From Planctomycetota bacterium (GTDB taxonomy: Bacteria; Planctomycetota; Phycisphaerae; Phycisphaerales; SM1A02): a DNA stretch of 64,000 nt. Positions 5,790 to 42,192 of the stretch are shown piece by piece. The DNA is taken from NCBI GenBank assembly GCA_022563315.1, contig JADFNO010000001.1, positions 2,503-66,502 of the forward strand, written 5' to 3'. Within the stretch, counting starts at the first letter, position 1. Every line of letters starts with the position of its first letter. The notes beneath the pieces were generated by a model. The model saw nothing but the letters and a program-made list of their open reading frames with translations, was not told the DNA's origin and made no database searches. Both the position numbers and the translations under genes were made by a program.

Positions 5790-5793
5790 GTTG

Positions 5794-23913: not shown

Positions 23914-25776
23914 ATGGCGAGAAACGGTCGAGTCGCAAAGCCCCCCCCGCCCCCGGAATTGAAAAGAAGGCAACCGGGTTCCATAGGTGGCGAGCCACGG
24001 CCACAAAGCGTATCGTCCGCAGTCGTGCGAGGGTTGACCCGACGTTGGATTTATCGTGCACCGGGCGAGGCGACCCCGGCCGAGCCATCGTCCGTCGTGC
24101 AGCGGGTCTTGAAAGCTCGCGGATTGACCGGCCCGGATGCCATTCGCCGATTCTGCGAGCCGAAGCTCACTGACCTCCACGATCCGGGGCTGCTCCCCAA
24201 TGTAGAACGTGCGGCCCTGCGGCTGGTCGAGGCGGTGCGCGGCCAAGAGCAGATCGTGATCTATGGCGACTACGACGTCGATGGGATCACCGCCAGCGCT
24301 ATCCTTTATTACATCATCAAGGCGGTCGCGCCGGACGCCAACGTTCGGACCTACGTGCCGCACCGTATAGATGACGGTTACGGCCTCAGCGGTGACGCAT
24401 TACGGCAGCTCAGATCAGACGGGGCCCAGCTCGTGATCTCGGTGGATTGCGGCATCACCGCGATCGAGCCGGCCCGAATCGCCCGTGAGATCGGCCTGGA
24501 CCTGATCATCACCGACCACCACCGTCCGCCGCAGGAAGCAGGTGCGCTGCCGGACGCCTTTGCGATCGTCCATCCGGGTTTGCCTGGAAGTACGTATCCA
24601 TTCAGCGAGCTTTGCGGCGCGGGTGTCGCCTACAAGCTCGCGTGGCTGTTTGCAACAGTTTGGTGCGGCTCCAAGCGCGTCGGCAAATCACTCCAACAGA
24701 CGCTGCTTCATTTGTTGCCGCTCGCTGCCCTGGGGACGATCGCGGACGTCGTGCCGTTGGTTGACGAGAATAGGGTGATTGCCATGTTCGGCTTGCGTTG
24801 GATGAAGCAGACACCCATCGTTGGGTTGCGGGCGCTGATCGAAGCTTCGGGCCTGATGGACGAACATATCGACTCAGAGAAAGTGGGGTTCGTGCTCGGA
24901 CCGCGACTCAATGCTTGCGGACGAATGGGTCATGCGGAAGAAGCGTTGCGTATGCTCACGACGTCCTCCACTGGGGAAGCTGCGACAATCGCAGCCCAAC
25001 TCACGCAGTTGAATAGACAGCGCCAGAAGACGGAGCGGGAGGTATGTGATCACGCGGCCCAAATGGCTGAAGATTCGGGAATGACCGCCGACGATCACCG
25101 CGCGATCGTTTTGGCCGATGAATCCTGGCATCGTGGGGTGATCGGGGTAGTATGTTCTCGGATCGTCGATCGCTTCGGCCGGCCAACGATCCTGCTTCAG
25201 CGAGAAGGCGATACGTGCAAGGGTTCGGCGCGCAGTATCGACGGATACTCGATGTACGATGCGCTGAGCGCATGCTCGGATCATCTGCTCAATTTCGGCG
25301 GGCACGATGGCGCGGCTGGTCTGTCCGTAGCGACGGCGAATCTTCCCGCCTTCACCGAAGCGTTCGTCGAGCACGCCAACGCCCACATCAGCGCCGAGGA
25401 ACTCACGCCAGCTGTGGACATCGACTGCGACGCCACGCTAGACGAGCTGGATATGGATACGGTGAAGCGGATCGCGGCCCTGTCGCCGTTCGGCCGATCG
25501 AATCCTCGCCCCGCGCTGCGCATTGAGCGGGCCACGCTCGCCGAGGCGCCTCGCCAGATTGGCAGGAACGGCCGGCACCTGACGCTCCGGCTGCAACAGG
25601 ATCTCGGGGCGAGCCGAAAGATCGTGCGAACCGTCTGGTGGGGTGCGGGCGGCTTGGCCGCTGATCTTGCTGCGGGCATGTGCCTGGACGTCATCATCGA
25701 ACCCAAGATCAATACCTGGAACGGTCGGACGAGCGTCGAGGGCGAAATCAAAGACGTGCGCGTGTGCGAAGTGTGA
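23914..25776 (+). CDS. recJ: Single-stranded-DNA-specific exonuclease RecJ
   Basis: DHH motifs 'IVIYGDYDVDGITASAIL', 'VDCGI' and 'IITDHH', plus the DHHA1 motif 'FGGHDGAAG'. I chose the ATG at 23914; the longest ORF begins at 23779. Confidence 0.9.
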   Translation: MARNGRVAKPPPPPELKRRQPGSIGGEPRPQSVSSAVVRGLTRRWIYRAPGEATPAEPSSVVQRVLKARGLTGPDAIRRFCEPKLTDLHDPGLLPNVERAALRLVEAVRGQEQIVIYGDYDVDGITASAILYYIIKAVAPDANVRTYVPHRIDDGYGLSGDALRQLRSDGAQLVISVDCGITAIEPARIAREIGLDLIITDHHRPPQEAGALPDAFAIVHPGLPGSTYPFSELCGAGVAYKLAWLFATVWCGSKRVGKSLQQTLLHLLPLAALGTIADVVPLVDENRVIAMFGLRWMKQTPIVGLRALIEASGLMDEHIDSEKVGFVLGPRLNACGRMGHAEEALRMLTTSSTGEAATIAAQLTQLNRQRQKTEREVCDHAAQMAEDSGMTADDHRAIVLADESWHRGVIGVVCSRIVDRFGRPTILLQREGDTCKGSARSIDGYSMYDALSACSDHLLNFGGHDGAAGLSVATANLPAFTEAFVEHANAHISAEELTPAVDIDCDATLDELDMDTVKRIAALSPFGRSNPRPALRIERATLAEAPRQIGRNGRHLTLRLQQDLGASRKIVRTVWWGAGGLAADLAAGMCLDVIIEPKINTWNGRTSVEGEIKDVRVCEV

Positions 25777-25786
25777 TCGCAAGAGC

Positions 25787-25810
25787 CTGCGGATATTCAT
25801 CCGCAGCTAG
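25787..25810. repeat. REP-like hairpin element, copy 2 (ctgcggat-attc-atccgcag + ctag); probable bidirectional terminator
   Basis: An 8-bp perfect stem between the convergent recJ and GAF genes. It belongs to the same sequence family as 21541-21564. Confidence 0.7.
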
Positions 25811-26286
25811 GAAGAGTGCGAAGTAAGTCCGGCCGCTTCGAGCACCTGATGTAAACCGAGCGCATCGGATTCATCGAACGCGCCGAGGTCCGACGAATCG
25901 ATATCCAGCACACCCCAGCACACGCCGCGCTCATCGAGCAGCGGCATGACGATCTCGGATCGGTCCCGCGGATCGCAGGCGATGTAGTTCTCGCCCAGTT
26001 CAGTCACGTCCCGAACGATGCGCGGTTTCTTGGAGCGCAACGCCTGACCGCACACACCGTGCAGGCCGATCGGTGAACACGCCGGCTTGTCACGGCGCCA
26101 ACTCAGCACGAGCCTCTTCTCATCCGGCTCGTGCGGCCTATCAATATAGAAACCGACCCAGGAGTACCCGTGATTCTCAAAGGCGACCCACAGCGCGTCA
26201 ACGACCGCGAGCATGCGCTGGTCGCGTGCGCCGATCGGCTTCAATTGATCGACCACGGCTTGATAGTCACGAGACGTAGACGCCAT
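25807..26286 (-). CDS. GAF-domain protein, free methionine-(R)-sulfoxide reductase (fRMsr/YebR)-like
   Basis: 'WVGFYI...CSPIGLHGVCGQA...IVRDVTELGENYIACDPRDRSEIVMPL...GVLDIDS' resembles fRMsr-type GAF proteins. I chose the ATG at 26286 (159 aa); the ORF extends to 26340. Confidence 0.7.
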   Translation of the reverse strand: MASTSRDYQAVVDQLKPIGARDQRMLAVVDALWVAFENHGYSWVGFYIDRPHEPDEKRLVLSWRRDKPACSPIGLHGVCGQALRSKKPRIVRDVTELGENYIACDPRDRSEIVMPLLDERGVCWGVLDIDSSDLGAFDESDALGLHQVLEAAGLTSHSS

Positions 26287-26357
26287 GGCACGATGATAGA
26301 TCGTTGAAGGCGACGATGGGTTGTGCCTCCGTAGGGTCAAGCCCTACGGCTAAACCT

Positions 26358-26445
26358 CAATGCCTCATTGCCTCGATGCCTCGATGCCTCGATGCCTTGA
26401 TGCCTTGATGCCTTGATGCCTTGATGCCTTGATGCCTTGATGCCT
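26358..26445. repeat. 8-bp tandem array (YRWTGCCT x11)
   Basis: The units read caatgcct, cattgcct, cgatgcct x3, tgatgcct x6. The array ends 7 nt before the GspF-2 stop codon. Confidence 0.9.
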
Positions 26446-26452
26446 TCCGCCC

Positions 26453-27703
26453 TCACCCGCCGGCCATCACTTTGCCCATGCTAAAGATCGGCAGCAGCAG
26501 CGCCAGGGCGACCGAGCCAATCACCACACCCATGAGAATGATCATCACCGGTTCAATGTATGCGGTAACTTGGCGCACGGCGGCGTCCAGCTCCTCCTGA
26601 CTGAACTGGGCGATGCGCTCCATGACCTCGGGCAGGCGGCCGGATCGCTCACCGGCTGAGATCATCGAGGCGACATTAGCGCCGACGAATTTGTGCTGAA
26701 AAACGGCGTCGCTCATCTGCCGGCCGTTGCGAATTTCGTCGGTCATGGTATCCCAGAGCCGATCGTAGTACGCGTTATTCGTCACGCCGCGGCAGATATC
26801 AATAACGTCGAGCACGTTGACGCCCGTGCCCAGGAGGGTGGCCATCGTGCGTGAAGCGCGGGTGATGTACAACTGCCGGTACATGCCGCGTAACCCAGGC
26901 ACATTCAGCCGGACCCAATCGGCGGCTCGCCGGCCGGACTGAGTCTTCAGCCAGACCACGAGCGCGACGACGGCGAGAATACTCAGCGGCCCATACCACA
27001 GGTACTCAGTGGTTATGAAATTACTCATCGCCAGCAGAATCCTGGTCGGCGTGGGCAGTGACGCGGATCGCTCGCCGTAGATCGTGGCAAACCGAGGCAG
27101 CACGAACGCCATCAGGAAAACGGTCATCGCGAGACTGCTCGCCATCATGAAGAGGGGGTAGGCCAGTGCTCCCTTCACTTGCCGTGCCGTCTGCCGCTCC
27201 TTGGAGAGGTACTCGCCGACTCGTCCCAGCATCAAGGCCATGGTTCCGGAAGCCTCCGACGCTCGCATCAGGCTGATCATCATCGACGGAAAGATGCGAG
27301 GCCACTTCATCATCGATGTTGACAGTGGCTCGCCGCCGTCGAGGTCCTCCCGCACGACAATCAGGACCTCGCGGAAGTCCCGGCTCGGCGTCTGATCGCT
27401 GAACGCCTGCATCGCCTCCGACAACGGCACGCCGGTCTCGAGCATCACCGACAATTGCTGGCAGAACGCAATCACATCCTCACGCTTGACGCGCTTTGCC
27501 GCTTCAGCGCGCCGAATCTGCTTGCGATCGAGTCGTGCGTCGACGCGCATGGGGTTCGCCTCGACCTCGAAGACGAATTTTCCCTCTGCCCGGAGGCGCG
27601 CGTTCACGTCCTCCGGACTCGACGCGATCAGCGTGCCGGTCACGACCGCTCCGGTCTTATCACGGGCCTTGTAGCCGTATGTACTTTCGACTGGCATAGA
27701 CAA
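26453..27703 (-). CDS. GspF/PilC-family platform protein (cluster 2)
   Basis: 416 aa with two T2SSF repeats ('FCQQLSVMLETGVPLSEAM', 'ITRASRTMATLLGTGVNVLDVIDI') and three TM segments. Confidence 0.9.
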   Translation of the reverse strand: MSMPVESTYGYKARDKTGAVVTGTLIASSPEDVNARLRAEGKFVFEVEANPMRVDARLDRKQIRRAEAAKRVKREDVIAFCQQLSVMLETGVPLSEAMQAFSDQTPSRDFREVLIVVREDLDGGEPLSTSMMKWPRIFPSMMISLMRASEASGTMALMLGRVGEYLSKERQTARQVKGALAYPLFMMASSLAMTVFLMAFVLPRFATIYGERSASLPTPTRILLAMSNFITTEYLWYGPLSILAVVALVVWLKTQSGRRAADWVRLNVPGLRGMYRQLYITRASRTMATLLGTGVNVLDVIDICRGVTNNAYYDRLWDTMTDEIRNGRQMSDAVFQHKFVGANVASMISAGERSGRLPEVMERIAQFSQEELDAAVRQVTAYIEPVMIILMGVVIGSVALALLLPIFSMGKVMAGG

Positions 27704-27721
27704 ATCGTTCTCACATCTGCG

Positions 27722-29455
27722 TCACATGCTCGTGACGTAGAACACTTCCTCAGCGGTGGTCAATCCACCCTCGACCTTTTCCATGCCGTCCGCGCGCAAC
27801 GTTCCAAAGCCGCTCTTGGCGAGAATGGTTCGAAGCTCCTGGAGGTTCGCCCCGCGCGCGACGGCGGTCAGAAGCTCCTCGTCGGGAACGAGCAGCTCGA
27901 AGATTCCAATTCGCCCGGCGAAACCCGTCCCGCGACACCGACTGCAGCCTTGACCGCGAGAGAGATCCTCAATCGGGCCGCAGTAATTCTCGACGGCCTC
28001 GCGGATGACCGGCTCGGGCTCGTACGTCTCCTTGCAATGTGGGCAGATTTTCCGCACCAGACGCTGAGCGAGGACGCCGCGGAGGGTCGCCGCCACCAGG
28101 TAGGGCTCGATCCCGATGTTGACAAGGCGAGTCACGGCGCTGGGCGCATCGTTGGTATGGAGGGTTGAGAAGACCAGATGCCCGGTCAACGCCGCCTGGA
28201 TCGCCGTGGCGGCGGTCTCGGCATCACGCACCTCGCCGACCATCAGTATGTCGGGGTCTTGACGTAACATCGAGCGCAGGGCGAGCGCGAAGCTGAACCC
28301 GGCTTTCTCATTCACCTGTGACTGATTGATGCCCGGGATGTTCGCTTCGATCGGGTCCTCGACCGTGCATATGTTCTGCTCGTCGGAGTTGAGCAGGCTC
28401 AGCACAGAGTACAAGGTTGTCGACTTGCCGGACCCGGTCGGCCCGGTGACGAGTACGACGCCGTTGGGCTGGCGGACAACCTCCTTCCAACCCAGGAGCA
28501 TCCCCGCCGAAAACCCGAGCTTGTCCAGTGACACGATCGAGTTGCGGTTGTCGATGATCCGGATCACGACCTTCTCGCCGAACTTGCCCGGCATGGTGGA
28601 GACGCGAAGATCGATCGGTCGGCCGTCCATCCGCACGTGGATATCGCCGTCTTGCGGCAAGCGCCGCTCGGAGATGTCAAGATTGCTCATGATCTTGATG
28701 CGGCTCGTCAGCGCCGCGTGCATCTGGTAGGGCGGGGCAAGCCGCTCGTACAATCGGCCGTCTACTCGGTACCGGACGCGCAGGCGATGATCGTCCGGCT
28801 CGATATGGATATCCGAGGCGGCGTCCTGCACCGCGCAATAGATAATGTAGTTGACAAGCTTCACGACCGGACTGTGCCCGGCGACTTCCTCAAGATCAGC
28901 CAACTCGGTGACCTGCCGCTCGATGAGGCTGAAATCGGCTTCATCGATGTCTTCATAAATGTCGTCGATGACAAAGACGTTCGCGGCCGGCAAGTACGAA
29001 CGAAGCGAGGTCTCGATCTCGGCGCTCGTCGCGGCGACGATCTGGACCTCATGCCCCGTCAGCCGCTGAATCTCCTCCACCAGGAAGACGTTGGCCGGCT
29101 CCGATACCGCAACCGTCAGTACGCCGCGGACAAGGAACAGGGGCAGGATCGTGTGCTCCTCAACAAACTCGCGCGGCAGAAGTTCGATGATTTGGGGATC
29201 CGCAATCTTTGCGGTATTCTGAACGAACGGCACACCATAGCCATCCGCAAGCGCCTCGATAACCTGCGGATCAGTGGCGAAATTCATTTCCACGAGGATT
29301 TCGCCGATCAGCTTCTTGTGCCCTTTTTGAGCTTGATGCTCGAGGGCCTCGGTGAGTTGGCTCGGCGTGATATATCCCTTGGCGATAAGCATCTCACCCA
29401 GTTGGCGGCGCGGGCCTGCGTCGACACTCGATGTTATTCGCGAATGCTGAATCAT
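27722..29455 (-). CDS. GspE/PilB-family ATPase (cluster 2)
   Basis: Walker A 'GPTGSGKSTT', a tetracysteine 'CPHC...CSRC', a T2SSE_N-like region, and a partly degenerate MshEN-like N-terminus. Confidence 0.95.
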   Translation of the reverse strand: MIQHSRITSSVDAGPRRQLGEMLIAKGYITPSQLTEALEHQAQKGHKKLIGEILVEMNFATDPQVIEALADGYGVPFVQNTAKIADPQIIELLPREFVEEHTILPLFLVRGVLTVAVSEPANVFLVEEIQRLTGHEVQIVAATSAEIETSLRSYLPAANVFVIDDIYEDIDEADFSLIERQVTELADLEEVAGHSPVVKLVNYIIYCAVQDAASDIHIEPDDHRLRVRYRVDGRLYERLAPPYQMHAALTSRIKIMSNLDISERRLPQDGDIHVRMDGRPIDLRVSTMPGKFGEKVVIRIIDNRNSIVSLDKLGFSAGMLLGWKEVVRQPNGVVLVTGPTGSGKSTTLYSVLSLLNSDEQNICTVEDPIEANIPGINQSQVNEKAGFSFALALRSMLRQDPDILMVGEVRDAETAATAIQAALTGHLVFSTLHTNDAPSAVTRLVNIGIEPYLVAATLRGVLAQRLVRKICPHCKETYEPEPVIREAVENYCGPIEDLSRGQGCSRCRGTGFAGRIGIFELLVPDEELLTAVARGANLQELRTILAKSGFGTLRADGMEKVEGGLTTAEEVFYVTSM

Positions 29456-29467
29456 CTTTCGCTCGAT

Positions 29468-29803
29468 CTACCGCAGGCTCTTGGCGGCGGCCTCTATGCT
29501 TTCGTGAACGGCGAACCGCCGATCAAGTCGGGTGACCTCAAAAATCTTCTGCACGGTCTCGCCGGGATTGACCAGTCGGCACTGGCCGGAGCGATTCGCC
29601 GTCTCATCCATGATCCACAGCAGCAGCTCGAGCCCCGCCGAGTCGATCAGTGTCAGATGCTCCAGGTCCAGGACGACGTCGCGGACCCCGGCGTCGAAGC
29701 GCTCCTGGCAGGTGCGGCGGAAGGCATCGGCCGAATCGGCGGTCAGTTCGCCACTGACCGTCAGCACGGTGATGGAGTCGTGATCTTCATAGCTGAGCTT
29801 CAT
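29468..29803 (-). CDS. STAS-domain protein, cluster 2
   Basis: 111 aa. 'VVLDLEHLTLIDSAGLELLL' is the core motif with the conserved Ser. There is an ATGA overlap with the upstream HD-GYP gene. Confidence 0.85.
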   Translation of the reverse strand: MKLSYEDHDSITVLTVSGELTADSADAFRRTCQERFDAGVRDVVLDLEHLTLIDSAGLELLLWIMDETANRSGQCRLVNPGETVQKIFEVTRLDRRFAVHESIEAAAKSLR

Positions 29804-31452
29804 GCTGCATCCTCCCGCGGCCGGGCCGCATCGTCTTGCAGGGCGCGATGCTCACGTACCAGACGGTCATAGCCGCTGAAATCGAGCGTGACGAATACCG
29901 GGGCCAAATCCGGATCGAACTGTGTGCCTGCGCATTGACTGATCTCGGCCAGGACCTCGGACCGTGTCATGGCGGCGCGATAGGTTCGTGTCGAACTCAT
30001 GGCATCGAACGAGTCCGCCAAGGCAATCAGCCGGGCCACCATCGGAATCCGCTGCCCCGAGAGTCCATGCGGGTAGCCCGCGCCGTCCCAGCGCTCGTGG
30101 TGGTAGAGGACGCCCGGGAGAATATCTTTCAACTGGGGAATGTCCTTCAAGATGCGGTATCCGATCTCCGGATGCTTGCGCATGGAGTCGAACTCCTCCT
30201 CGGTCAGCTTCCCGGGTTTGCAGAGAACAGTCTCGGGCACGCCGATCTTGCCGACGTCATGGATCAGGCCGGTGATCTGCATTCGACTGATGGTGTGGTC
30301 AGGCAGTCCGATTGCCTTGGCCAACTCTTGCGTAAGGTGGGCGACTCGTCGGGAGTGGCCAGAGGTGTATTGATCCTTCGCATCGATCGAGGCGGTCAGC
30401 GCATCGAGCGTGCCGAGAAACATCGCGTTGAGATCGTCGTACAGCGCGGCATTCTCGAGGAAGATCGCCATGTGCGTTGCTGTCGCGCCAAGCAGTTTCA
30501 TATCGACGGACGAGACGTCCCGGTCCGGCCCCTGCTTCTCGCCGGCAACGAGCAATCCGATCACTCGGTCGTCACGACTGATCGGGTGTGCCAGCACTGA
30601 TTTGCCGAGATCCGCAAAGCGGGCGTGCTCGTCGTTGATCGCCGGCCCCAGGACCAGCGGCGTCTCGGGCTGGGCCAGACTGAGCAGGTCTTGAACAAGA
30701 GGCCGCAGCGCGTCAACGGGTAGGTTCGGCTCGCCGCTCACTGTAAACAAGCCCGCGAGTTTCTTCAGCCGATCACGATCGTCCGCGAGCAGGGCCGCGA
30801 CCCAACCGTACGGCAATGTCCCCAACAGCTCCTCGCACACGATCGTGACGAACCGTCTCGGCTGCTGCACGACCGTCATGCTTTGCGTGATCGAATAGAG
30901 CAAGCTGATCTCTTCGTACGAGTCGGCAAGCTGCTGACCCACGCTCTCCATGGCTTCGTCGTTCGAGGCCAGTTGAACATGGTCGGCGAGCGCATAGCTG
31001 GTCATCACGGCCAGTCTTTGGACGTCGGCTTCACCGGCGGGCGGAAGCTCGGCGAGTCGGCGACGCGTCAGTTCGAAGTCCATGCGCACAGACTGGCACA
31101 TTGCTGACAGTTGCTCGCAATCGAGGAACGCGTCGGTGAGGATCACCGCCACGGCATAGCCGACCCGTCGGCGGCGACGGACGCGCGGCATGGGGAAGAC
31201 CCAGCAGCCCGGGAACAACTCGAGACCCGGCAGCTCGCTGAGTTGTTTCCATTTCCCGGCCGCTTCTCGCAGAGCGCCTCGGAAAATGCGCGAAAGGCAG
31301 AACAAATCCGCCAGCCAGTCGGTGCCCGGCCGCGGCCTGGAGTTCAAATGCCCCACGGTATCGCAGTCCAACAGCAGCAGACCGACCTCCCGGAGCCGTT
31401 GCGCGACGGCTCGGGTCGCCTTGGTCTCGAGATGGCTGTCGCGCTGATTCAC
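29800..31452 (-). CDS. GAF + HD-GYP domain protein (cluster 2)
   Basis: 'GHSRRVAHL...GLIHDVGKIGVPETVL...YHHERWDGAGYPHGL...DSFDAMSSTRTYR'. By eye it is ~60% identical to 2391..4010 over the catalytic half. Confidence 0.9.
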   Translation of the reverse strand: MNQRDSHLETKATRAVAQRLREVGLLLLDCDTVGHLNSRPRPGTDWLADLFCLSRIFRGALREAAGKWKQLSELPGLELFPGCWVFPMPRVRRRRRVGYAVAVILTDAFLDCEQLSAMCQSVRMDFELTRRRLAELPPAGEADVQRLAVMTSYALADHVQLASNDEAMESVGQQLADSYEEISLLYSITQSMTVVQQPRRFVTIVCEELLGTLPYGWVAALLADDRDRLKKLAGLFTVSGEPNLPVDALRPLVQDLLSLAQPETPLVLGPAINDEHARFADLGKSVLAHPISRDDRVIGLLVAGEKQGPDRDVSSVDMKLLGATATHMAIFLENAALYDDLNAMFLGTLDALTASIDAKDQYTSGHSRRVAHLTQELAKAIGLPDHTISRMQITGLIHDVGKIGVPETVLCKPGKLTEEEFDSMRKHPEIGYRILKDIPQLKDILPGVLYHHERWDGAGYPHGLSGQRIPMVARLIALADSFDAMSSTRTYRAAMTRSEVLAEISQCAGTQFDPDLAPVFVTLDFSGYDRLVREHRALQDDAARPREDAA

Positions 31453-31862
31453 CCCGTCTTTGTCCTCGATTTGCGCAGCCCGGTCTCATCCGCGGCGCAA
31501 CCTGGCAGATCGTTCACCAATTTCAGGACAGCCCGCGGGCTGAACGGTTTGCTGATGACCCCCTTGATGTTCCCGATCTGAAGGTCCTCGTCATCCAAGG
31601 CGTAGCCTCGCGCCGTAATGATCAGCACCGGTATCTGTGACGTCGGACCGTAGTCGGCCAACGCGCGACACAGTTCAAGACCGGTCATGTACGGCATCTG
31701 AAAGTCGGTGATGACGAGATCCGGCAACTCCTGACAGGCGAGTTCGAAGGCCTCCTCGCCGTCCACCGAGGTGAGGACGTCGTGTCCGGCGTTGCGAAGC
31801 TTCAAGGACAGCACGTGCAGGATGTGCGCCTCATCATCAACTACAAGGATTCGATAAGCCAT
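31449..31862 (-). CDS. Stand-alone response-regulator receiver (cluster 2)
   Basis: 'ILVVDDEAHIL', 'DLVITDFQMPYMTG', 'ITARG' and 'SKPF'. The ATG at 31862 has a GAGGAGGAG Shine-Dalgarno upstream. There is a GTGA overlap with the HD-GYP gene. Confidence 0.9.
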   Translation of the reverse strand: MAYRILVVDDEAHILHVLSLKLRNAGHDVLTSVDGEEAFELACQELPDLVITDFQMPYMTGLELCRALADYGPTSQIPVLIITARGYALDDEDLQIGNIKGVISKPFSPRAVLKLVNDLPGCAADETGLRKSRTKTG

Positions 31863-31872
31863 TGACTCCTCC

Positions 31873-33357
31873 TCAGGCCGCCGCTTGCGAACCTGCGTAA
31901 CGCATCGGGATCGAGACCCAGAACTTCGAACCCATTCCGAGTTTGGACTCAATCCCGATCTGCCCGTCGTGAAGCGTCTCCACAATGTGTTTGCACAGAC
32001 TCAACCCCAATCCGGTTCCCGTCGCGATGCGCTTGTAGTTCTCCACACGGTAGAACTTATCGAACAGTTTCGGGATCGCGTCGGGCGGAATACCCAACCC
32101 CGTGTCTGAAACCGTGATCAAGACGCTGCGCGTCAGGTTGTCCGAATCCGCGTTGACGGTCACGCGGCCGCCGTCAGGCGTGTACTTGACCGCATTGGAC
32201 ACGAGATTCAACACAACCTGATACAGCATGTCGAGGTCTCCCTCAACGCTGAGATCAACGTCCGCAACCCGCTTGAGCAGCGAAATCTTCTTCTCACGCG
32301 CCTGTGGCCCCAAGGTGTCCACCGCACGATCGATCAGTTGCTTGATATCGACGTCCTTGCGCTCAATCTGGATTATCCCAGCTTCGATGCGGCTTATGTT
32401 GAGCATGTTGTCGATCAACCGACCCAGGCGCTGCGCCTCGTTGTGAATGATCTTGTAGAACTCCTGGCGAGAGGCCTCATCCGTCGCTTCACCGTCCACG
32501 AGCATCTCGATATAGGCGCTGATCGAGGACAGCGGCGTGCGCAGCTCGTGGCTGGCCTTGGATACAAAATCCGACTTGTTCTGCGAGATCTCACGCTCAC
32601 GAGTGAGATCGTGGAGAATGGTGACGACGCCCGCCACGTCATGTTTGTGGTCTTCGACACAGGTCAGCGTGATATCGAAAACACGCGTCTGCTCGCCCTC
32701 GCTCGAGCCGACGCTGATCTCGTGGTCGGTATGTCGGTGATCGGCGAAATTAGCGTTCTGGCAGGTGTCTTTGATCCACTGGCAAAGCCGGTCGTCACGA
32801 ACCACCCGGTCGATCGGCTGATGGATCGCGCCCGCAGGGTCGAAGCCGAAGATCCGTCCGGCCGCCTCGTTGACGACGACGAGCTCGTTAAAGGCATCGG
32901 TCACGAGCACCGCATCCCACAGCGCGTGGAGGACGGCCTCGATGTGGCGCTGCTCGGCCTCCGCGACGCGATGGCGAATCTCCACCTGGCGCACTTGGTT
33001 GCGCAGGACTTGCTCGCGTTGCGAGAACCGGTCGATGGCCCCGATGAATGCGCGACTGACCGGACGCAACCAACTCGGCCCGACAAACGGCGAACGAGGA
33101 TTTCCCGAATCAGAGCTCGCCTCGATATAAGTGCGGAGCTTCCCCAGAGACCGATCGGTCACGATCCCCAGCGGCAGCAGGATGCCCGAGACGACGACAA
33201 CGAAGATGCACCACAGCACGAGCAGTCGCACAACCGGATGCGACGCGTGACTCCATTCCTGAAACCAATCAAGGTTCAGCGCCGCGAAGGACAAAGCCGT
33301 CGCGGCCACCGACAGAATCAGCACCAGGTATAGACTTGCAACCTTCCCCGCCGTCAC
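31873..33357 (-). CDS. Sensor histidine kinase (2 TM, PAS-like, HisKA, HATPase_c), cluster 2
   Basis: H-box 'ASHELRTPLSSI', N-box 'VSNAVKYTPDGG', and G-boxes 'DTGLGI' and 'GTGLGLSLC'. Confidence 0.9.
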   Translation of the reverse strand: MTAGKVASLYLVLILSVAATALSFAALNLDWFQEWSHASHPVVRLLVLWCIFVVVVSGILLPLGIVTDRSLGKLRTYIEASSDSGNPRSPFVGPSWLRPVSRAFIGAIDRFSQREQVLRNQVRQVEIRHRVAEAEQRHIEAVLHALWDAVLVTDAFNELVVVNEAAGRIFGFDPAGAIHQPIDRVVRDDRLCQWIKDTCQNANFADHRHTDHEISVGSSEGEQTRVFDITLTCVEDHKHDVAGVVTILHDLTREREISQNKSDFVSKASHELRTPLSSISAYIEMLVDGEATDEASRQEFYKIIHNEAQRLGRLIDNMLNISRIEAGIIQIERKDVDIKQLIDRAVDTLGPQAREKKISLLKRVADVDLSVEGDLDMLYQVVLNLVSNAVKYTPDGGRVTVNADSDNLTRSVLITVSDTGLGIPPDAIPKLFDKFYRVENYKRIATGTGLGLSLCKHIVETLHDGQIGIESKLGMGSKFWVSIPMRYAGSQAAA

Positions 33358-33372
33358 AGACCTTCCTTCGCC

Positions 33373-34653
33373 TCAGTGAATCGATCCCTCCTGCACGCGC
33401 CGACCACCCGCCGAGGTTGGCGGCTCGAACGAGCCCGACGGTCTCGGGGCGAGACTCAGGCCCTGGAACAACGCCTGCGCGTCCGCGCTCTCAGGCTCGG
33501 CCCGCAGCGCCTCCGTGTACGCCCGAAGCGCCCCTTCGACATCACCGGCCTCCTCCAGAGTCCGGCCGAGAACAAGATGCGGAAGCGCCGCGGTCGGCGC
33601 CAGGCCGGCCGCCCGCCGCAGCAGCCCCGTCGCCTGCTCGAAGTTGCCCTTGTGTTGCTCATAGATGCCCTTGAGCATGTACCCCTCGTATCGCTGCGGC
33701 GCCAGGGCGATGATGCGAGCACTACACAGCGCCGTTCGCCGGAAGTCACCCAGCTCCCACGCCAACGACCCGAGCCCGATCCACACTTCCGGGTCGCTCG
33801 GACGGATACGCGTCATCTTCAGAAACAGGTTGCGCGCTTCGGTGTTTCGCTGCATCGCCCCCAGACAGCGTGCCTCAAGAAGCATCAACGCTGGGTTCTC
33901 CTCCTTCGACAACTTTTGCAACCGCTTCACCGACTCATAGCACTGGCCGTACAGGCGGGCCGCGTACTGGGCGTGGGCCAGCTCGTCCAGCAACATCGCA
34001 TCATCGGGGTTCAATAACCTCGCCTGGGCAAACAGCTTCGCCGCCCTTGGCGCGTCACCCCTTAGCAGAGCGATCTGGCCAAGCAATTGCCGCATGGCCG
34101 CGTTGTGCTCGAAGTAGTCAAGCTTCGACTCGACGAGCACAAGGGCGTCATCGTACTGTTGCAGCGAAATCAACGCCTCAGCGGTCGCAAGCAGGTACTG
34201 GACCGAGCTCGACTCCAACTCGTGAGCTTGGAGGTAATGCTCATAAGCGCGCGCATCATTCGACCACCGCTGAAACACGATGCCTGCGTAGTAGTGGGCC
34301 TCGGCGAACGTCGGTGCAAACTCGATCGCCTTCTCAAACGCATGGATGGAGCGTTCGAGGCGGTGCGTTTCCATAAGAATCCGCCCCTGGAGCAGGTAAT
34401 AGGCTGGGTTCTGCGGGTACTGCTGGATGGCGGCCGTGATCTGGCGCATCGCATGGTCGAACCGCCCCGTGTTGAACGCCTGTGTCGCCTGGTCGTAGGC
34501 GAGCTGGGCATTGAAGATCGCAACCCGTTCCCGGGCTGACGATCTCATCTCCTCGTGGTAACCGCCGCCTCCACTACATCCAACGAGCAAGACAGCAGTA
34601 ACGAGACCGGCGAGCGAAAAGATCGGGTGGCGTGGGCATGACATACGTCGCAT
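33373..34653 (-). CDS. TPR-repeat lipoprotein (possible PilF/Tgl-like secretin pilotin)
   Basis: Lipobox 'LLVGC' followed by ~10 TPR-like repeats. It lies immediately downstream of the secretin gene. The pilotin role is inferred from position only. Confidence 0.6.
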   Translation of the reverse strand: MRRMSCPRHPIFSLAGLVTAVLLVGCSGGGGYHEEMRSSARERVAIFNAQLAYDQATQAFNTGRFDHAMRQITAAIQQYPQNPAYYLLQGRILMETHRLERSIHAFEKAIEFAPTFAEAHYYAGIVFQRWSNDARAYEHYLQAHELESSSVQYLLATAEALISLQQYDDALVLVESKLDYFEHNAAMRQLLGQIALLRGDAPRAAKLFAQARLLNPDDAMLLDELAHAQYAARLYGQCYESVKRLQKLSKEENPALMLLEARCLGAMQRNTEARNLFLKMTRIRPSDPEVWIGLGSLAWELGDFRRTALCSARIIALAPQRYEGYMLKGIYEQHKGNFEQATGLLRRAAGLAPTAALPHLVLGRTLEEAGDVEGALRAYTEALRAEPESADAQALFQGLSLAPRPSGSFEPPTSAGGRRVQEGSIH

Positions 34654-34746
34654 CTCCTGTAGCAGATCGCGGTTGACGAGCCCCCCCTTTACCAGTCCTC
34701 TCTTTCAACCCTGTGTAAGCGAGCGAATCGCGGTTTGGATCCGTCG

Positions 34747-37392
34747 TCAACGCTCCGGAGTCTCAGGCACGGTCACGACGTGCGGCAGGTAATCGAACGT
34801 GACGAACGGAAACGGATCCTCCCAAACGCGGGCGTCGGCGGCCGCGGGATCCCAACCCATCCACCAGAACACGTGATGATGGCCGAAGCCGGGCACGAAT
34901 TCCTCGGAGATCGAATGGTTTGACGGATCGACGCGGGCCTCGACATTCGGCGTGTTGATCGAAACCGGAGTGTTCGAGAACGGCTGGAACTCGTCAAGCT
35001 GCCCGCTGAGCTGGCTGAACTGAGGGTTCCAGGGGTCGGCCGTCGCCTCGGAGGCGCCGCGAATGAATTGCGACGGCGCGTCCACGGGGGGCGGGGCAAG
35101 GATTTGCATTTCGACCTGCTCATAGCCCGAGCTGCGAACGAACTTGGACGGCTCCTGCTTGACCGGGGGCGGCGGAAGGAATCCGTCGATCAATTCGTCG
35201 TAGCCCGAATCGCCGATGAACACCGACGCTTCATCCTTGAAGGGCGGCGGCGGCACAAACTGGATGGCGCTTTCCATATCTTCGAGCAGCTCGGCGCTGT
35301 CGGACGGATCGTCGCTCTCAGAAGGCGCGAACCAACGGTCCGTATCCTCCTGCATAGGCTCCTGGGTCGGCTCTGGGGAGAACTCCTGAGTCTCTGGTAA
35401 CGCCGGCACCGGACTCTCAAAGTCATCATCCCACAGAACCGCCGATTCGAAATCATCAGCCGGCAGCGGCGGCTCTGCGCTAACAATGGGCTCATTGAAC
35501 TGTACCTGGCGGTCCGCATCATCGCCGGCCTCAGGCTGCGCTTCGGCGACGCTCTGGAGCCAATCGTTGTTGGGCAAGTCTGCTGATGCCGCTTCGGCCG
35601 CAAACGGATTCTGAGGCGTCGTCATCGGAGACGGAAAGGTGGTCACGCTCGCCTGCGACTGAATGGAAGGCGCCATTCGCGAGCGGAAGGCCCGTTCCAT
35701 CATGCTGCGCATGTGCGGGCTTTCTTTGGATCCGACCAGATCCTGGCGGAACCTCACTGCTTCAGGCTGGTTCTGGTTCAGATGCAGCGACGCTTTGATA
35801 TGCCACAAGGCCAGATCGATATCGCCCCGACTCTGCGCGTCCACCGCACGCTGATTGTGGTTAGCAGTGACCTTATCCCGGCTGAACGGCAGCAGGCCTG
35901 CGCGGGCGCCGATCTGGATGGCGTCACCGTAGGCAAGCGCCTCTTCGCCGATCTCCCACAGGACATCGTCTTTCACGATCGTCGGTGTAATCAGGAAGAT
36001 GATTTCGTCACGATCGATGGTGTCATCCTGTCCGCGGAACGCAGCGCCGATCAGCGGGATGTCGCCGAAGAACGGAATCTGGCGGCGCGTGGTTCGAGTC
36101 GATTCTCTATACAAGCCACCCAAGACCAGCGTCTGACCGTCCTTGATGCGGACATTGGTCGTCAACTCGTTCGTCAGCTCGTCGGGGATGGTCACGAGCA
36201 GACCGTTAGCGTCGGTGACGGTGCGCAGGCTCGCCTCGGACACGCTCGGCGACAGCTCCATCCGAATCATCCCGTCCCTGGAGATGAAGGGACGGAACAC
36301 GAGATGAATACCGGTATCCAGAAACTCGACCGTCTGGGTCGTTGTCGTCTGAGTCGCCGTGGTTGAGAGGTAGCCGATGCGAGTACCGACGAGCACCTCA
36401 GCTCGTTGGCGGTTCAAGACCATCACCTTCGGCCGGGCAAGGACCGTCGTGTCGCTGACCTCGTCGAGCACCTTGATGAAGACGCTGATGTCATCCGTGA
36501 GGATACCGATCTTCAGCCCGGCTGGACCGGCGGTTCCGCCCACGGTCGAGTCGAGAGCAAGGGCCTGTCGACCGCCGCTTCCCGCGGCGTCGGTCGCGCT
36601 ACCACCCAACAGTCCATTGACGGCTGACAGTGGATTGAAGACGTCGAGAATGCTGAAGTTCGCGCTACCCAGGATCGTGAAGTCCACGCCGAAGGCATTG
36701 GCCTCGTTCAGCGCGGTCTGGAGAATGGTGGCCTCCACCAGCACCTGCGTGGGCGCCACGTCGAGCTCACCGATCAGCGCGGCGATCGCCTCGAGGTTCT
36801 CCGGATAGTCGTTGACGACAAGCGTGGGAGCGTAGGCGAATGTATCCTCGCCGCCGTCCGTGATCGATGGTCGGTAACCCGGCGTCACCTCGCCGCGATA
36901 TGAGGCCCTGCCGGCTTCGCTCAGCAGTGGTATGATGAACTCGTTGGCATCCACGGCCGAGAGATAGTCCAGTTGGTAGGTACGAGTCTCGGTCTTGCGG
37001 CTTGCCTCCACGATGTCCTGAAACTCGGACTCGGTATAGATGTAGATGAAGTTCCCTTCCTCCATGTATCGGAAGCCGTTGACACGCAGGATGGCATCCA
37101 ACGCCTCGTAGAACGTGACGTCAAAGAGATTGGCGGTCACGGTGGCTGAGACGTTCTTGCTGGTAATGATGTTCTTCTGGCTCTGAATCGAAAGCATCTG
37201 GAGCACCTGGGCCAGGTCGGTGTCCTGGACGGCGAGATCGACCGTCTCGTAGTCCGTAACGTTGACCTTGGCCTCCGCCCCACCTGCCTGGCTCTGCCCG
37301 TTCGCCGGTGCTGCCACCACCGCCCAGGCCGCACAAACGGCAGCGATACGCCCAAAAAAATCGCCGCGGATGACTGTCTTGTTCCTACGCAT
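34747..37392 (-). CDS. Secretin (GspD/PilQ family) with ~400-aa C-terminal extension
   Basis: A signal peptide, N-domains, and the secretin core 'VLARPKVMVLNRQRAEVLVG...GQTLVLGGL...IPFFGDIPLIGAAFR...IIFLITPTIV' ending near aa 473 of 881. Confidence 0.9.
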   Translation of the reverse strand: MRRNKTVIRGDFFGRIAAVCAAWAVVAAPANGQSQAGGAEAKVNVTDYETVDLAVQDTDLAQVLQMLSIQSQKNIITSKNVSATVTANLFDVTFYEALDAILRVNGFRYMEEGNFIYIYTESEFQDIVEASRKTETRTYQLDYLSAVDANEFIIPLLSEAGRASYRGEVTPGYRPSITDGGEDTFAYAPTLVVNDYPENLEAIAALIGELDVAPTQVLVEATILQTALNEANAFGVDFTILGSANFSILDVFNPLSAVNGLLGGSATDAAGSGGRQALALDSTVGGTAGPAGLKIGILTDDISVFIKVLDEVSDTTVLARPKVMVLNRQRAEVLVGTRIGYLSTTATQTTTTQTVEFLDTGIHLVFRPFISRDGMIRMELSPSVSEASLRTVTDANGLLVTIPDELTNELTTNVRIKDGQTLVLGGLYRESTRTTRRQIPFFGDIPLIGAAFRGQDDTIDRDEIIFLITPTIVKDDVLWEIGEEALAYGDAIQIGARAGLLPFSRDKVTANHNQRAVDAQSRGDIDLALWHIKASLHLNQNQPEAVRFRQDLVGSKESPHMRSMMERAFRSRMAPSIQSQASVTTFPSPMTTPQNPFAAEAASADLPNNDWLQSVAEAQPEAGDDADRQVQFNEPIVSAEPPLPADDFESAVLWDDDFESPVPALPETQEFSPEPTQEPMQEDTDRWFAPSESDDPSDSAELLEDMESAIQFVPPPPFKDEASVFIGDSGYDELIDGFLPPPPVKQEPSKFVRSSGYEQVEMQILAPPPVDAPSQFIRGASEATADPWNPQFSQLSGQLDEFQPFSNTPVSINTPNVEARVDPSNHSISEEFVPGFGHHHVFWWMGWDPAAADARVWEDPFPFVTFDYLPHVVTVPETPER

Positions 37393-37419
37393 GATCGGAT
37401 GATCTCCTGCCTACCCTCG

Positions 37420-38043
37420 TTACGGCTTACGGTCGTGAACTCCTGGCGAATCCATCTTCAATTCGAAGCGGTGACCCTCACATTCCAGGACCACCGATCG
37501 AGGTCTGACCGCCGTCAGCTGGAAGCGGACGGCTTCGTTGTCCACGGCGGGTATCGAATCGCCGAGTTGGAATGTCCGGCCACTGATAACAGCCATGGGA
37601 CGGCCCTGCATTACGGCCTCCAAGGTGAATCGGCCCACCAGCGCGCGAAGTTGCGTCGCCCTCAACGCGCCTGGGTCCCTTGAGATTTCGGCCGGTCGCT
37701 CCAGCAACTTGGCTTGATCTTGCGGCAACACGTCAAGCGAGGTGGGTTTGGGGAAGTACTGATCACTGATCAGGAACGGGTCTCGTATCGGGAATTCGGC
37801 CAACTGAACGTTCACGGGAGCGCGGCGACGGTTATCGGAAACTCCAGGCGACGGCGGCCCGTCGGAACTCCGATCGTCGCTGGCGGCAGCGTTTTCATCC
37901 GCCACCGCCGTTCGAGGCAGATTCGACGTCACGATAATCCGCGACCACAGCAGCAGCCCGAGCAAGAAGGTCGCGCAAAGAGCGCCAAACCGACGACGGT
38001 CGGCTGTGAGCTGAATCCACAGACGTCTCAGGATCACAGGCAC
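37420..38043 (-). CDS. PilP/GspC-like protein (cluster 2, tentative)
   Basis: An N-terminal TM and the C-terminal segment 'AVMQGRPMAVISGRTFQLGDSIPAVDNEAVRFQLTAVRPRSVVLE'. It sits between the pilO-like and secretin genes, as in pilMNOPQ. Confidence 0.5.
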   Translation of the reverse strand: MPVILRRLWIQLTADRRRFGALCATFLLGLLLWSRIIVTSNLPRTAVADENAAASDDRSSDGPPSPGVSDNRRRAPVNVQLAEFPIRDPFLISDQYFPKPTSLDVLPQDQAKLLERPAEISRDPGALRATQLRALVGRFTLEAVMQGRPMAVISGRTFQLGDSIPAVDNEAVRFQLTAVRPRSVVLECEGHRFELKMDSPGVHDRKP

Positions 38044-38046
38044 GGA

Positions 38047-38619
38047 TTACCGGCCCTCCTGCGCACGCAACGGCTCAAAGACGGCCTCGAGCCGAACCGA
38101 CGCCGTCACGAGCGGAACCGCCTGGGCATCGTCGCGACTCGCCGACATGTTCACCGACGAGACACGAACGAGGTGTTCCTGGGATTCGGCCGCTCGGAGC
38201 AGCGCAAAAACAGCGTCAAAACGGGCCACCATCTCCACCGTCAGCGGCAGAGCCTGGAAAGGAAAACCAGCCCCGGCCACCGTGTCCTTCGGCTGGCCCG
38301 CCGTGAACGTCTGGTCTTTGATCGTGACGCCGTCCACCGGCAGCGACAGGGCGCGCATCAGTCCGGCGATGTTTGGTGAGTCCGGTATGACCTTGAACTC
38401 GGATTCGATGCGTTTGGAGACCGCCTCAAGCTCCGCCGTCAAGCGATCGATCTCCCGGGCCTGGCCGACGGCGCCTTCGGACTTCCGACGAAGCTCGGCC
38501 ACACGCTCATGAACAGCCCCGGCTTCCCGATAGGCCGGCCAAACAAGCAACAGCCACCCGACCACGACCAGCGCGAACAACCCGAGTGCCCCCAGCATTA
38601 TGCGGCTGCTAGTCGGCAT
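38047..38619 (-). CDS. pilO: PilO-like protein (cluster 2)
   Basis: A TM helix ('MLGALGLFALVVVGWLLLV'), a coiled coil and a globular C-terminus. I chose the ATG at 38619; the longer ORF to 38802 would overlap the pilN-like gene by ~190 nt. Confidence 0.6.
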   Translation of the reverse strand: MPTSSRIMLGALGLFALVVVGWLLLVWPAYREAGAVHERVAELRRKSEGAVGQAREIDRLTAELEAVSKRIESEFKVIPDSPNIAGLMRALSLPVDGVTIKDQTFTAGQPKDTVAGAGFPFQALPLTVEMVARFDAVFALLRAAESQEHLVRVSSVNMSASRDDAQAVPLVTASVRLEAVFEPLRAQEGR

Positions 38620-39283
38620 CGACGACCTCCCCCGCCTGAGGTTGCGGCGCTTCCACAACCCGATACGGAACATCCAGATCGATAAGAAAACTGATGCGGA
38701 ACTCTCTGGCCCCGCGTTCCCTGACGACCAGAGTTCGACTGAAGTCGAGGCTGACATGCTCATACAGCGCGCGAGATTCCATCCGGGCAACGATCTCAGC
38801 AATGTCGGCGTCGGTGGCGGCGAAGCCTCTGAGCTCTCCGGTCAGAACGCGCGGCCGCGGTCCGGTTTCGTCATCCACGCCCCGGCTTCGCGCCGACCGA
38901 CCGGTGCGCCGCACACCAGCCACGAGATCGATTCGGTCGAGCGTGACGTTGACCGGCAGATCGTTGACGACCGTCGCCAGCACTTGACTCATATCCAAGG
39001 GCAGGATGGTGCGCTCGTATCGCTCGGTGAACCGGCGCGCCTCCTGGAGCTGGGCCCGCAACGCGCCGGCTTGGGTCTCACCGGCGATCACCAGCGACGC
39101 CCGCTGCTCGGCCTCGTCAAGCTGCTCCCGGGCATGGCTCAGACGAAACCTCGCGTGAGTAGCGCTGACCGCAAGCAGCACCACCACCGCCATAATGGCG
39201 CCGATGTACCAACCGGCCACGACGCTCGCCTGGCCCCGCGCGCGAATCTGATCCGGCAACAGATCAATGGAGTGCTGGGTCAC
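38609..39283 (-). CDS. pilN: PilN-like protein (cluster 2)
   Basis: 'IDLLPDQIRAR' plus a TM helix. The GTG start at 39283 overlaps the pilM-like stop (GTGA). The longest ORF extends to 39478, inside pilM. Confidence 0.65.
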   Translation of the reverse strand: MTQHSIDLLPDQIRARGQASVVAGWYIGAIMAVVVLLAVSATHARFRLSHAREQLDEAEQRASLVIAGETQAGALRAQLQEARRFTERYERTILPLDMSQVLATVVNDLPVNVTLDRIDLVAGVRRTGRSARSRGVDDETGPRPRVLTGELRGFAATDADIAEIVARMESRALYEHVSLDFSRTLVVRERGAREFRISFLIDLDVPYRVVEAPQPQAGEVVDAD

Positions 39284-40455: not shown

Positions 40456-40488
40456 GAGTCCTAAATCGCTAGCCGCTGCCGCACATGC

Positions 40489-41067: not shown

Positions 41068-41089
41068 TAGGCAACTCCTTGGGCTGCGG

Positions 41090-41380: not shown

Positions 41381-41383
41381 AGC

Positions 41384-42034: not shown

Positions 42035-42192
42035 CAAGGACCCAACCAGTGAGAAACAAGAGCGTTCAGGGACCGTCCCCGGGATACCGGTCTGTGGCGG
42101 CGGTTCATTCAAACCGGACGAAGAGAACGCCGGCGTGTTTCCACGGCCGGCGTCTCGAAAGATCAACTGATTGCTGAAGCGTATCTCCAGTC

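Follow-up and report, generated by a model that had tools for sequence, protein, structure and literature searches.

Two diverged pilus-like gene clusters with a kinase, receiver, HD-GYP and STAS cassette conserved across Planctomycetota

What is a complete set of signaling genes doing inside the operon of a pilus motor? What is known of how type IV pilus and type II secretion system (T2SS) motors are controlled comes mainly from Proteobacteria, Myxococcus and cyanobacteria, where control runs through binding of cyclic di-GMP (c-di-GMP), PilZ/FimX adaptors and CheY-like regulators. The question is raised by a 64,000-nt stretch of contig JADFNO010000001.1 (GCA_022563315.1) from a marine Phycisphaerales planctomycete, here called the window, in which two gene clusters each combine a membrane histidine kinase (HK), a stand-alone receiver (REC), an HD-GYP protein and a small STAS protein with the assembly ATPase and platform protein of a type IV filament machine. 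A preliminary description of this DNA had proposed that HK-to-REC signaling controls local c-di-GMP hydrolysis and, together with the STAS protein, gates the ATPase.

Conservation and duplication of the cassette

Open reading frame (ORF) listing and Pfam scans of the window ORFs recovered the six cassette genes of cluster 2 where the preliminary description had placed them, all on the minus strand and each with its matching domain. They also recovered the same parts in cluster 1, where the REC and HD-GYP pair has indeed been relocated, to the plus strand (1975–4010) (Table 1). Cluster 2 runs without large gaps from its major pilin-like gene to the platform gene, in the order pilins, PilM, PilN, PilO, a 207-aa protein, secretin, TPR protein and the six-gene cassette. 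In cluster 1 the platform gene is followed by PilM, PilN and PilO and then by pilin-like genes, and each cassette thus belongs to a complete cluster for filament assembly. The cluster-2 genes had been described as linked by start-stop overlaps; this holds for REC/HD-GYP and HD-GYP/STAS, which overlap by 4 nt, and not for STAS/ATPase and ATPase/platform, which lie 12 nt and 18 nt apart. In cluster 1 it is STAS/ATPase and ATPase/platform that overlap by 4 nt, and the 4-nt REC/HD-GYP overlap is present in both window copies, including the relocated cluster-1 pair.

The proposal had been staked on gene order being conserved outside this genome, and a neighborhood survey bore it out decisively across Planctomycetota. 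One genome per GTDB species was scanned with the STAS alignment, the best 80 of 136 related stretches were kept, and these loci, retrieved through STAS alone, were annotated with hidden Markov models built from the window proteins. The STAS gene stands directly before the ATPase and platform genes in 77 of the 80 loci, the three exceptions being two loci at contig ends and one Riflebacteria locus without the ATPase (L078); because these loci were retrieved independently, the arrangement is not a matter of chance. The full cluster-2 order, HK-REC-HD-GYP-STAS-ATPase, was found in 47 of the 80 loci, usually with PilM, secretin and TPR genes ahead of it. Another 17 loci have the cluster-1 order, in which HK-STAS-ATPase leads on to the platform and PilM genes; REC and HD-GYP are close by, at places and in directions that differ from locus to locus. 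Three have HK-REC-STAS-ATPase with no HD-GYP gene.

The taxa with this layout belong to Phycisphaerae and Planctomycetia and include Phycisphaerales, Sedimentisphaerales, Pirellulales, Fuerstiella and the cultured Maioricimonas sp. JC845; one metagenome-assembled genome (MAG) among the related loci is labelled Deltaproteobacteria (L087). The same gene order, with a protein identical to the cluster-2 STAS protein (STAS2), recurs on several metagenome contigs and on one from a Planctomycetota MAG (GCA_022572665.1), and the STAS homologues are labelled Phycisphaerales or Planctomycetota. Three loci (L061, L065 and L069) carry tandem ATPase genes after STAS (STAS-ATPase-ATPase-platform), at about 10.2–13.3 kb in each. 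As the preliminary description had also supposed, we found no account of this embedded layout in the searchable full-text literature, which leaves out most subscription journals, and a prior mention is possible.

The paralogues had been judged by eye to be about 50–60% identical, an estimate that proved too high: BLASTP identities are 35% for the kinases, 46% for the receivers, 43% for the HD-GYP proteins, 24% for the STAS proteins, 42% for the ATPases and 29% for the platform proteins. Of the two HD-GYP proteins, Pfam detects GAF only in the cluster-2 copy, yet they align over their full length. Across loci the ATPases split into two lineages, one like the ATPase of cluster 2 (E2-like) and one like that of cluster 1 (E1-like). 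At cluster-2-type loci every part is nearest to the window's cluster-2 copy, and at cluster-1-type loci the HK and ATPase are consistently nearest to cluster 1, with a noisier signal for STAS, REC, HD-GYP and platform in Planctomycetia. Judged from these comparisons, the two cassettes are old lineages with co-diverging parts, in which each ATPase appears to have retained its own STAS, HK, REC and HD-GYP. Since the parts of the two lineages co-diverge, we conclude that the duplication happened long ago and that the cassette has since moved as one unit, in agreement with the original proposal and with the order conserved across the phylum.

Type of machine and c-di-GMP parts

The motors had been called GspE/PilB, and the full-length matches described below make them PilB-like and not classical GspE. 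Machine type was assessed with NCBIfam equivalog models at their own cut-offs and with matches to PDB sequences. The GspE and PilB equivalogs tie for both ATPases, all below cut-off (the PilB-type model TIGR02538 gives 586 bits for each, against a cut-off of 675.65), and the platform, secretin and pilin models are likewise tied and below cut-off; the cluster-2 secretin falls short of the GspD, PilQ and MshL models alike. The best full-length PDB matches of both ATPases are the type IVa PilB proteins of Geobacter and Myxococcus (5zfr, 5tsg and 3jc8 for ATPase 2), and both clusters encode PilM_2, PilN and PilO as separate genes together with prepilin-type N_methyl motifs. Given the full-length PilB matches and the separate PilM, PilN and PilO genes, both clusters are best read as type IVa-pilus-like (type IV filament) systems with PilB-like motors, for which a role in secretion is possible.

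That they are instead type II secretion systems, with a cassette that tunes protein secretion, seems rather unlikely. Scores with the GspE, GspF, GspD, GspG and GspH models are about level with those of the pilus models, and cluster 1 ends in large pseudopilin-like proteins with PKD and CBM domains; in addition, neither a PilT retraction ATPase nor a prepilin peptidase was found among the scanned window ORFs, although both may lie elsewhere in the genome. Yet none of the GspE, GspF, GspD and GspG equivalog cut-offs was reached, GspE structures align to the ATPases only from about residue 119–177 onward, and the clusters, in which neither GspC nor GspL was detected, have separate PilM, PilN and PilO genes in their place rather than GspL/GspM.

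Whichever product the motor serves, its ATPase is a candidate receptor. Binding of c-di-GMP activates MshE-type ATPases (PMC4624772, PMC4624765, PMC5013675) and promotes pilus assembly in MshE-type systems (PMC4624772, PMC4624765). The published MshEN motif consists of two 24-residue sequences, RLGxxLLxxGLLxxxxLxxxLxxQ, joined by 5 residues. Both window ATPases exceed the cut-off (38) of NF053729 ("c-di-GMP motif, MshE-related"), with 59.4 bits for ATPase 1 and 55 bits for ATPase 2. In ATPase 1, whose N-terminus matches the Vibrio cholerae MshEN crystal sequence 5htl, the motif is essentially canonical, reading RVGEALVEEGVLTEDQLAQALDQQ, spacer KSSEL, then RLGELLVAEGVISPGAIVRTLSKC; in pattern form this is RVGxxLVxxGVL...Q, a 5-residue spacer and RLGxxLVxxGVI, and the sole departure is C for the final Q. 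The PilZ protein at the head of cluster 2 has RxxxR (R43..R47) and DxSxxG (D74, S76, G79) motifs that are invariant in 15 homologues. Its gene, whose start is probably internal to the ORF (relatives are about 114 aa long), has a divergent DUF1015 gene on one side and the pilin gene on the other, as it does in other Phycisphaerales genomes (L094–L098).

On the hydrolytic side, the HD-GYP catalytic motifs HDVGK, HHE and GYP are intact in both window copies and in 64 of 66 orthologues. An AlphaFold2 model of the cluster-2 protein (mean pLDDT 82) predicts an N-terminal alpha/beta domain, a coiled coil, a GAF domain, a connecting helix and the HD-GYP domain, and Foldseek ranks the active enzyme PmGH first (4mcw, E 2e-15), with DvhD and PA4781 next (top matches 4mcw, 9rbz and 4r8z). 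In both HD-GYP proteins the first ~140 residues make up an alpha/beta domain, modelled with confidence, that belongs to no Pfam family and precedes a coiled coil of ~50 residues; W46, P81, G82 and C119 in this domain are invariant in 38 homologues. A hidden RsbW-like kinase in the N-terminal 200 residues was considered and rejected, as Pfam gave nothing meaningful at E up to 10 and the modelled fold is PAS/GAF-like, not GHKL. The earlier likening of the REC and HD-GYP genes to a split RpfG is apt: they are translationally coupled through their 4-nt overlap and encode separate polypeptides, and no ORF in the window or the related loci scores for both domains.

Because an MshE-type motif is present on both ATPases and a PilZ gene heads cluster 2, there is a plausible local reader for c-di-GMP hydrolysis. 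The c-di-GMP part of the proposal is thereby strengthened, and to judge from its sequence the motor itself is a likely receptor. By analogy with MshE-type systems, HD-GYP would be an off switch.

Receiver and STAS as proposed inputs to the motor

The model that we favor, which in its full form we hold about equally likely to be right or wrong, is that two anciently duplicated type IVa-pilus-like clusters each have a dedicated post-translational control set. It is built on what the sequences show: which genes are present and in what order, their coupling, the integrity of the motifs, the conservation of the layout over the phylum and the parallel divergence of its parts. The membrane PAS histidine kinase would phosphorylate the stand-alone receiver, which would in turn modulate the translationally coupled sensor-GAF-HD-GYP protein, the two forming a split RpfG-like pair; the predicted phosphodiesterase activity would then lower c-di-GMP near the machine. 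The fall would be read by the MshE-type N-terminal domain of the PilB-like ATPase, with a canonical motif in cluster 1 and a half-degenerate one in cluster 2, and in cluster 2 also by the PilZ protein from the operon head. The STAS protein, co-produced with the ATPase, would be its cognate and probably Ser55-phosphorylatable partner, setting ATPase activity or recruitment much as MlaB acts on MlaF, and would so provide a second, probably phospho-dependent input.

For this second input the evidence begins with the STAS proteins themselves, which are single-domain and SpoIIAA-like, with Thermotoga TM1442 and SpoIIAA as their best solved relatives. Both carry a D-S-x-G-L phospho-serine motif and GELxxD; STAS2 passes the TIGR00377 cut-off (Table 1) and the cluster-1 protein (STAS1), with 47.7 bits, stays below it. 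At cluster-2-type loci the median identity to the window copy is 49% for STAS, about equal to that of the other signaling parts, versus 67% for the ATPase. A STAS protein is known to bind and regulate an ATPase in the case of MlaB and MlaF (PMC7367683). The fixed upstream and often overlapping position of STAS, the diverged STAS of its own that each ATPase lineage has, the lack of an RsbW-like kinase gene nearby and the MlaB–MlaF precedent lead us to favor a cognate STAS–ATPase partnership, and we infer direct contact between the two rather than reporting it as a result. More tentatively still, the STAS proteins may be a new class of phospho-switchable partners of PilB/GspE ATPases, which together with the receiver would act as a phylum-wide "clutch" on pilus motors in parallel to c-di-GMP.

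Several observations weigh against this model. The locus scan used the peptide patterns DSAGLE and H-x-x-x-E-x-A-A-K, so that the conservation of these two motifs is partly a matter of ascertainment; adjacency to the ATPase is unaffected. The similarity of STAS to MlaB is weak (E about 4e-4 to MlaB chains in the PDB; 26–28 bits with NF033618 against a cut-off of 90). When a STAS profile was run against 1.84 billion representatives, the 150 best of 55,839 STAS matches included no STAS-T2SSE fusion. The long STAS relatives are multi-STAS proteins joined instead to domains of the RsbW-like kinase, PP2C or Ser/Thr kinase type, which points to classical partner switching, or to glycosyltransferase domains. 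On the c-di-GMP side, no GGDEF domain and hence no local diguanylate cyclase was found by Pfam in the scanned window ORFs. Motif I of ATPase 2 has Q instead of R; this ATPase and its orthologues read QLG or P/R-LG there, share a spacer of 7 residues, and have a motif II (LIGEILVEMNFA...G) that lacks the Arg, Gly and Gln. Binding of c-di-GMP by ATPase 2 is doubtful given that spacer and a second half-site without Arg and Gln, a weakness for which the PilZ protein may compensate. Finally, no HD-GYP gene lies within 10 kb in L070, L080, L083 and L087–L089, which retain HK-REC-STAS-ATPase, and REC therefore need not act through HD-GYP.

The last point bears on the idea that HK and REC do not work through HD-GYP at all, the receiver acting on the motor or on STAS in the manner of CheY, PilG or PilH, and HD-GYP being a parallel input driven by its own N-terminal sensor and GAF domains. 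We consider this possible but doubtful. Besides the loci without a nearby HD-GYP gene, it is favored by the cluster-1-type loci, in which HD-GYP is divergent, convergent or several kilobases away while HK and STAS are fixed, and by the roughly 340 residues of sensor domains that HD-GYP has of its own in a high-confidence model. Against it stand the 4-nt REC/HD-GYP overlap in both window copies, which the relocated cluster-1 pair has kept as well, the adjacency of the two genes in at least 47 loci, and their co-divergence by type in Phycisphaerae, although this signal is noisy in Planctomycetia type-1 loci. Of the claim that HK and REC control local c-di-GMP, the link to c-di-GMP has thus gained, while HD-GYP is not universal and REC may have another or an additional target.

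A comparable question attaches to STAS, which might be an ordinary partner-switching antagonist served by a remote RsbW-type kinase and PP2C phosphatase, with an anti-sigma factor or another enzyme as its target and with ATPase adjacency serving co-expression only. It would then control transcription or c-di-GMP synthesis without touching the ATPase, and the SpoIIAA/TM1442-like sequence with its phospho-serine motif, the HATPase_c_2, SpoIIE or Pkinase domains of the nearest long relatives, and the STAS antagonist HsbA, which connects partner switching with c-di-GMP and motility (PMC5085249), all fit such a role. We nevertheless think it improbable. The preliminary description had reported no GGDEF cyclase, RsbW-type kinase or PP2C phosphatase in the window, and none was found either by Pfam on the scanned ORFs or by low-sensitivity single-sequence probes over all window ORFs. 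The same probes found no RsbW-like kinase in 90 related loci, where PP2C-like matches are confined to L069 and the Riflebacteria locus L078, which lacks the ATPase, and neither kind of gene was seen in Pfam-annotated relatives. Moreover, each ATPase lineage has its own diverged STAS (24% identity) immediately upstream and often overlapping, which suits a cognate physical partner more than a global switch common to both.

Window features, known systems and meaning

The features of both clusters are collected in Table 1. For two genes the longest ORF exceeds the call adopted there: HK1 is 621 aa in the gene calls of relatives and its longest ORF extends to 17744, and the REC2 ORF extends to 31985, with related contigs calling 137 aa. 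The small GAF protein downstream of the cluster-2 platform gene is peripheral and conserved only among the closest relatives. Within the window a secretin gene is found only in cluster 2; cluster-1-type loci of Planctomycetia do have one downstream.

Table 1. Coordinates of the genes of clusters 1 and 2 in the window
Feature	Position	Strand	Evidence and remarks
PilZ-domain protein, head of cluster 2	43090–43488	−	Pfam PilZ (PF07238) 29.4 bits, cut-off 22.5
Major pilin-like gene, cluster 2 (block 40489–42627)	42193–42627	−	N_methyl motif, sub-threshold GspG match, FTLIE-type N-terminus
Two further pilin/pseudopilin-like genes, cluster 2 (same block)	41384–42166 and 40489–41256	−	N_methyl, FTLIE-type N-termini
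PilM, cluster 2	39280–40455	−	Pfam PilM_2
PilN-like, cluster 2	about 38609–39283	−	Pfam PilN; gene calls of relatives
PilO/GspM-like, cluster 2	about 38047–38619	−	Pfam PilO/T2SSM; gene calls of relatives
207-aa membrane protein, cluster 2	37420–38043	−	One predicted transmembrane segment
Secretin, cluster 2	34747–37392	−	Pfam Secretin 145.8 bits, N0 domain
TPR protein between secretin and HK, cluster 2	33373–34653	−	Multiple TPR families; position kept in 48 loci
Histidine kinase 2 (HK2)	31873–33357	−	Two N-terminal transmembrane segments (hydropathy), PAS, HisKA, HATPase_c; H-box SHELRTP
Stand-alone receiver 2 (REC2), 137 aa	31449–31862	−	Response_reg 74.9 bits; DD, D53, T83, K105 present
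Predicted sensor-GAF-HD-GYP phosphodiesterase 2	29800–31452	−	HD_5 135.5 bits, HD, GAF_3; HDVGK, HHE, GYP motifs
STAS protein 2, 111 aa	29468–29803	−	STAS 78.1 bits; TIGR00377 80.1 bits, cut-off 53.45; DSAGLE with Ser55
PilB-like assembly ATPase 2	27722–29455	−	MshEN and T2SSE 443.9 bits; MshE-type motif residues 18–70
PilC/GspF platform protein 2	26453–27703	−	T2SSF 181.8 bits, two repeats
Small stand-alone GAF protein downstream of platform 2	25807–26340	−	GAF_2/GAF; in 14 of 80 loci
Histidine kinase 1 (HK1)	15702–17567	−	Two transmembrane segments flanking a ~130-aa loop, then PAS, HisKA, HATPase_c
STAS protein 1, 111 aa	15360–15695	−	STAS 56.6 bits; DSRGLE motif
PilB-like assembly ATPase 1	13579–15363	−	T2SSE 453 bits; near-canonical MshEN motif residues 9–61
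PilC/GspF platform protein 1	12356–13582	−	T2SSF 190 bits
PilM, cluster 1	11299–12351	−	Pfam; gene calls of relatives
PilN, cluster 1	10679–11299	−	Pfam; gene calls of relatives
PilO, cluster 1	10116–10682	−	Pfam; gene calls of relatives
Gene without assigned family, cluster 1	about 9517–10071	−	
Pilin, cluster 1 (pilin block 4038–9390)	8851–9390	−	
GspH-like, cluster 1 (pilin block)	8288–8752	−	
Large N_methyl protein, 560 aa, cluster 1	6606–8288	−	
N_methyl and PKD protein, 271 aa, cluster 1	5794–6609	−	
583-aa protein, cluster 1	4038–5789	−	GspK-like N-terminus, CBM_4_9 carbohydrate-binding domain
Stand-alone receiver 1, 139 aa	1975–2394	+	Response_reg 86.2 bits
Predicted sensor-HD-GYP phosphodiesterase 1	2391–4010	+	HD_5 133.4 bits; HD, HHE, GYP motifs; convergent with the end of cluster 1

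The set of minor-pilin genes in cluster 1 varies: L091 and L092, whose STAS1 is identical, have genes for 352, 176 and 175 aa in place of the window's 560, 271 and 583 aa. A scan of positions 25000–44000 for promoters and terminators was uninformative, with sites no more frequent than in shuffled sequence.

Elsewhere in the window, a single-gene type XI retron, a fusion of reverse transcriptase and trypsin-like protease called from its protein, lies at 45939–47744 on the minus strand (PADLOC RT-Protease_XI 471 bits; Pfam RVT_1 and Trypsin_2). It sits between the DUF1015 gene and dehydrogenase/aminotransferase genes, and because these flanking genes adjoin each other in related genomes (L094–L097), it looks like an inserted defense island. 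A polysaccharide-related block at 55306–63971, also on the minus strand and unrelated to the pilus cassette, encodes a low-molecular-weight phosphotyrosine phosphatase (56196–56684), a family 4 glycosyltransferase, an epimerase/dehydratase and a TPR protein. It also encodes a 735-aa protein with a C-terminal ParA/MinD-like P-loop domain, reminiscent of a BY-kinase.

Each part of the cassette belongs to a known family, namely MshE-type ATPases, two-component HD-GYP proteins as in RpfC/RpfG, PilZ proteins and SpoIIAA-like STAS proteins. From alignment proteins through secretin and TPR protein to ATPase and platform, the gene order of cluster 2 presumably resembles mshI-J-K-L-M-N-E-G of the MSHA pilus. 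Like MshE in V. cholerae, the window ATPases have an N-terminal MshEN c-di-GMP motif (PMC5013675, PMC4624772, PMC4624765). The msh operon, by contrast, is not known to contain an embedded HK, REC, HD-GYP or STAS gene. The likeness is also imperfect in cluster 2, where the second half-site of the ATPase is degenerate, the spacer longer and the secretin below the MshL cut-off. The MshEN paper mentions only domain fusions of MshEN with REC and HD-GYP.

In Xanthomonas, the sensor kinase RpfC and RpfG, a receiver with an HD-GYP c-di-GMP phosphodiesterase, influence pilus-dependent motility, and the same parts are found here. Unlike in RpfC/RpfG, the REC and HD-GYP genes of the window are separate, overlapping and sited inside a pilus operon, the HD-GYP protein has its own N-terminal sensor and GAF domain, and the kinase lacks the REC and HPt domains of a hybrid. 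PmGH of Persephonella marina (4mcw) is the best structural match to the GAF-HD-GYP part and shares the HD, HHE and GYP motifs, whereas the window protein adds the N-terminal alpha/beta domain and long coiled coil, about 190 residues.

The STAS proteins agree with SpoIIAA, RsbV and TM1442 in length and in their GELxxD and DSxGL motifs, and differ in that no kinase, phosphatase or sigma factor gene was found nearby, the fixed neighbor being a pilus ATPase, and in the sub-threshold TIGR00377 score of STAS1. With MlaB–MlaF they share a single-domain STAS protein encoded beside an ATPase, which MlaB regulates with the phospho-site-equivalent residue at its interface with MlaF (PMC7367683); there, however, the partner is an ABC ATPase rather than a PilB/GspE hexamer, the sequences are only weakly similar, and the contact proposed here is purely inferential. 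In HsbR-HsbA-HsbD of Pseudomonas aeruginosa, a STAS antagonist likewise joins a two-component phosphorelay to c-di-GMP metabolism and motility (PMC5085249). The Hsb system has a REC-PP2C-kinase protein and a diguanylate cyclase, in contrast to the stand-alone REC, the HD-GYP protein and the lack of a local STAS kinase or phosphatase here.

What is new is the fixed combination inside a motor operon, and the pairing of STAS with a PilB/GspE-family ATPase across the phylum and through an ancient duplication. The c-di-GMP half of the model follows known logic, and the STAS half is what we infer. Planctomycetes are noted for unusual surface fibers, attachment and polysaccharide capture. To judge from its variable minor-pilin block, cluster 1 may have a filament tip that can be swapped and binds carbohydrate, and the CBM and PKD domains on its minor pilins hint at a possible link to polysaccharide capture. 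The model is testable, since a cultured isolate, Maioricimonas sp. JC845, has the cluster. Across a whole phylum, motor operons have a kinase, a receiver, a c-di-GMP hydrolase and a STAS protein wired into them, and two such sets have been kept since an ancient duplication. If STAS binds the ATPase, it would be a new class of regulator for these motors and the motor a new target for STAS switches; a STAS-motor "clutch", if true, would give STAS partner switching an output, and type IV filaments a mode of control, that are both new. Even without such binding, the cassette would be a clean natural example of local c-di-GMP signaling, with sensor, hydrolase and receptor in one operon.

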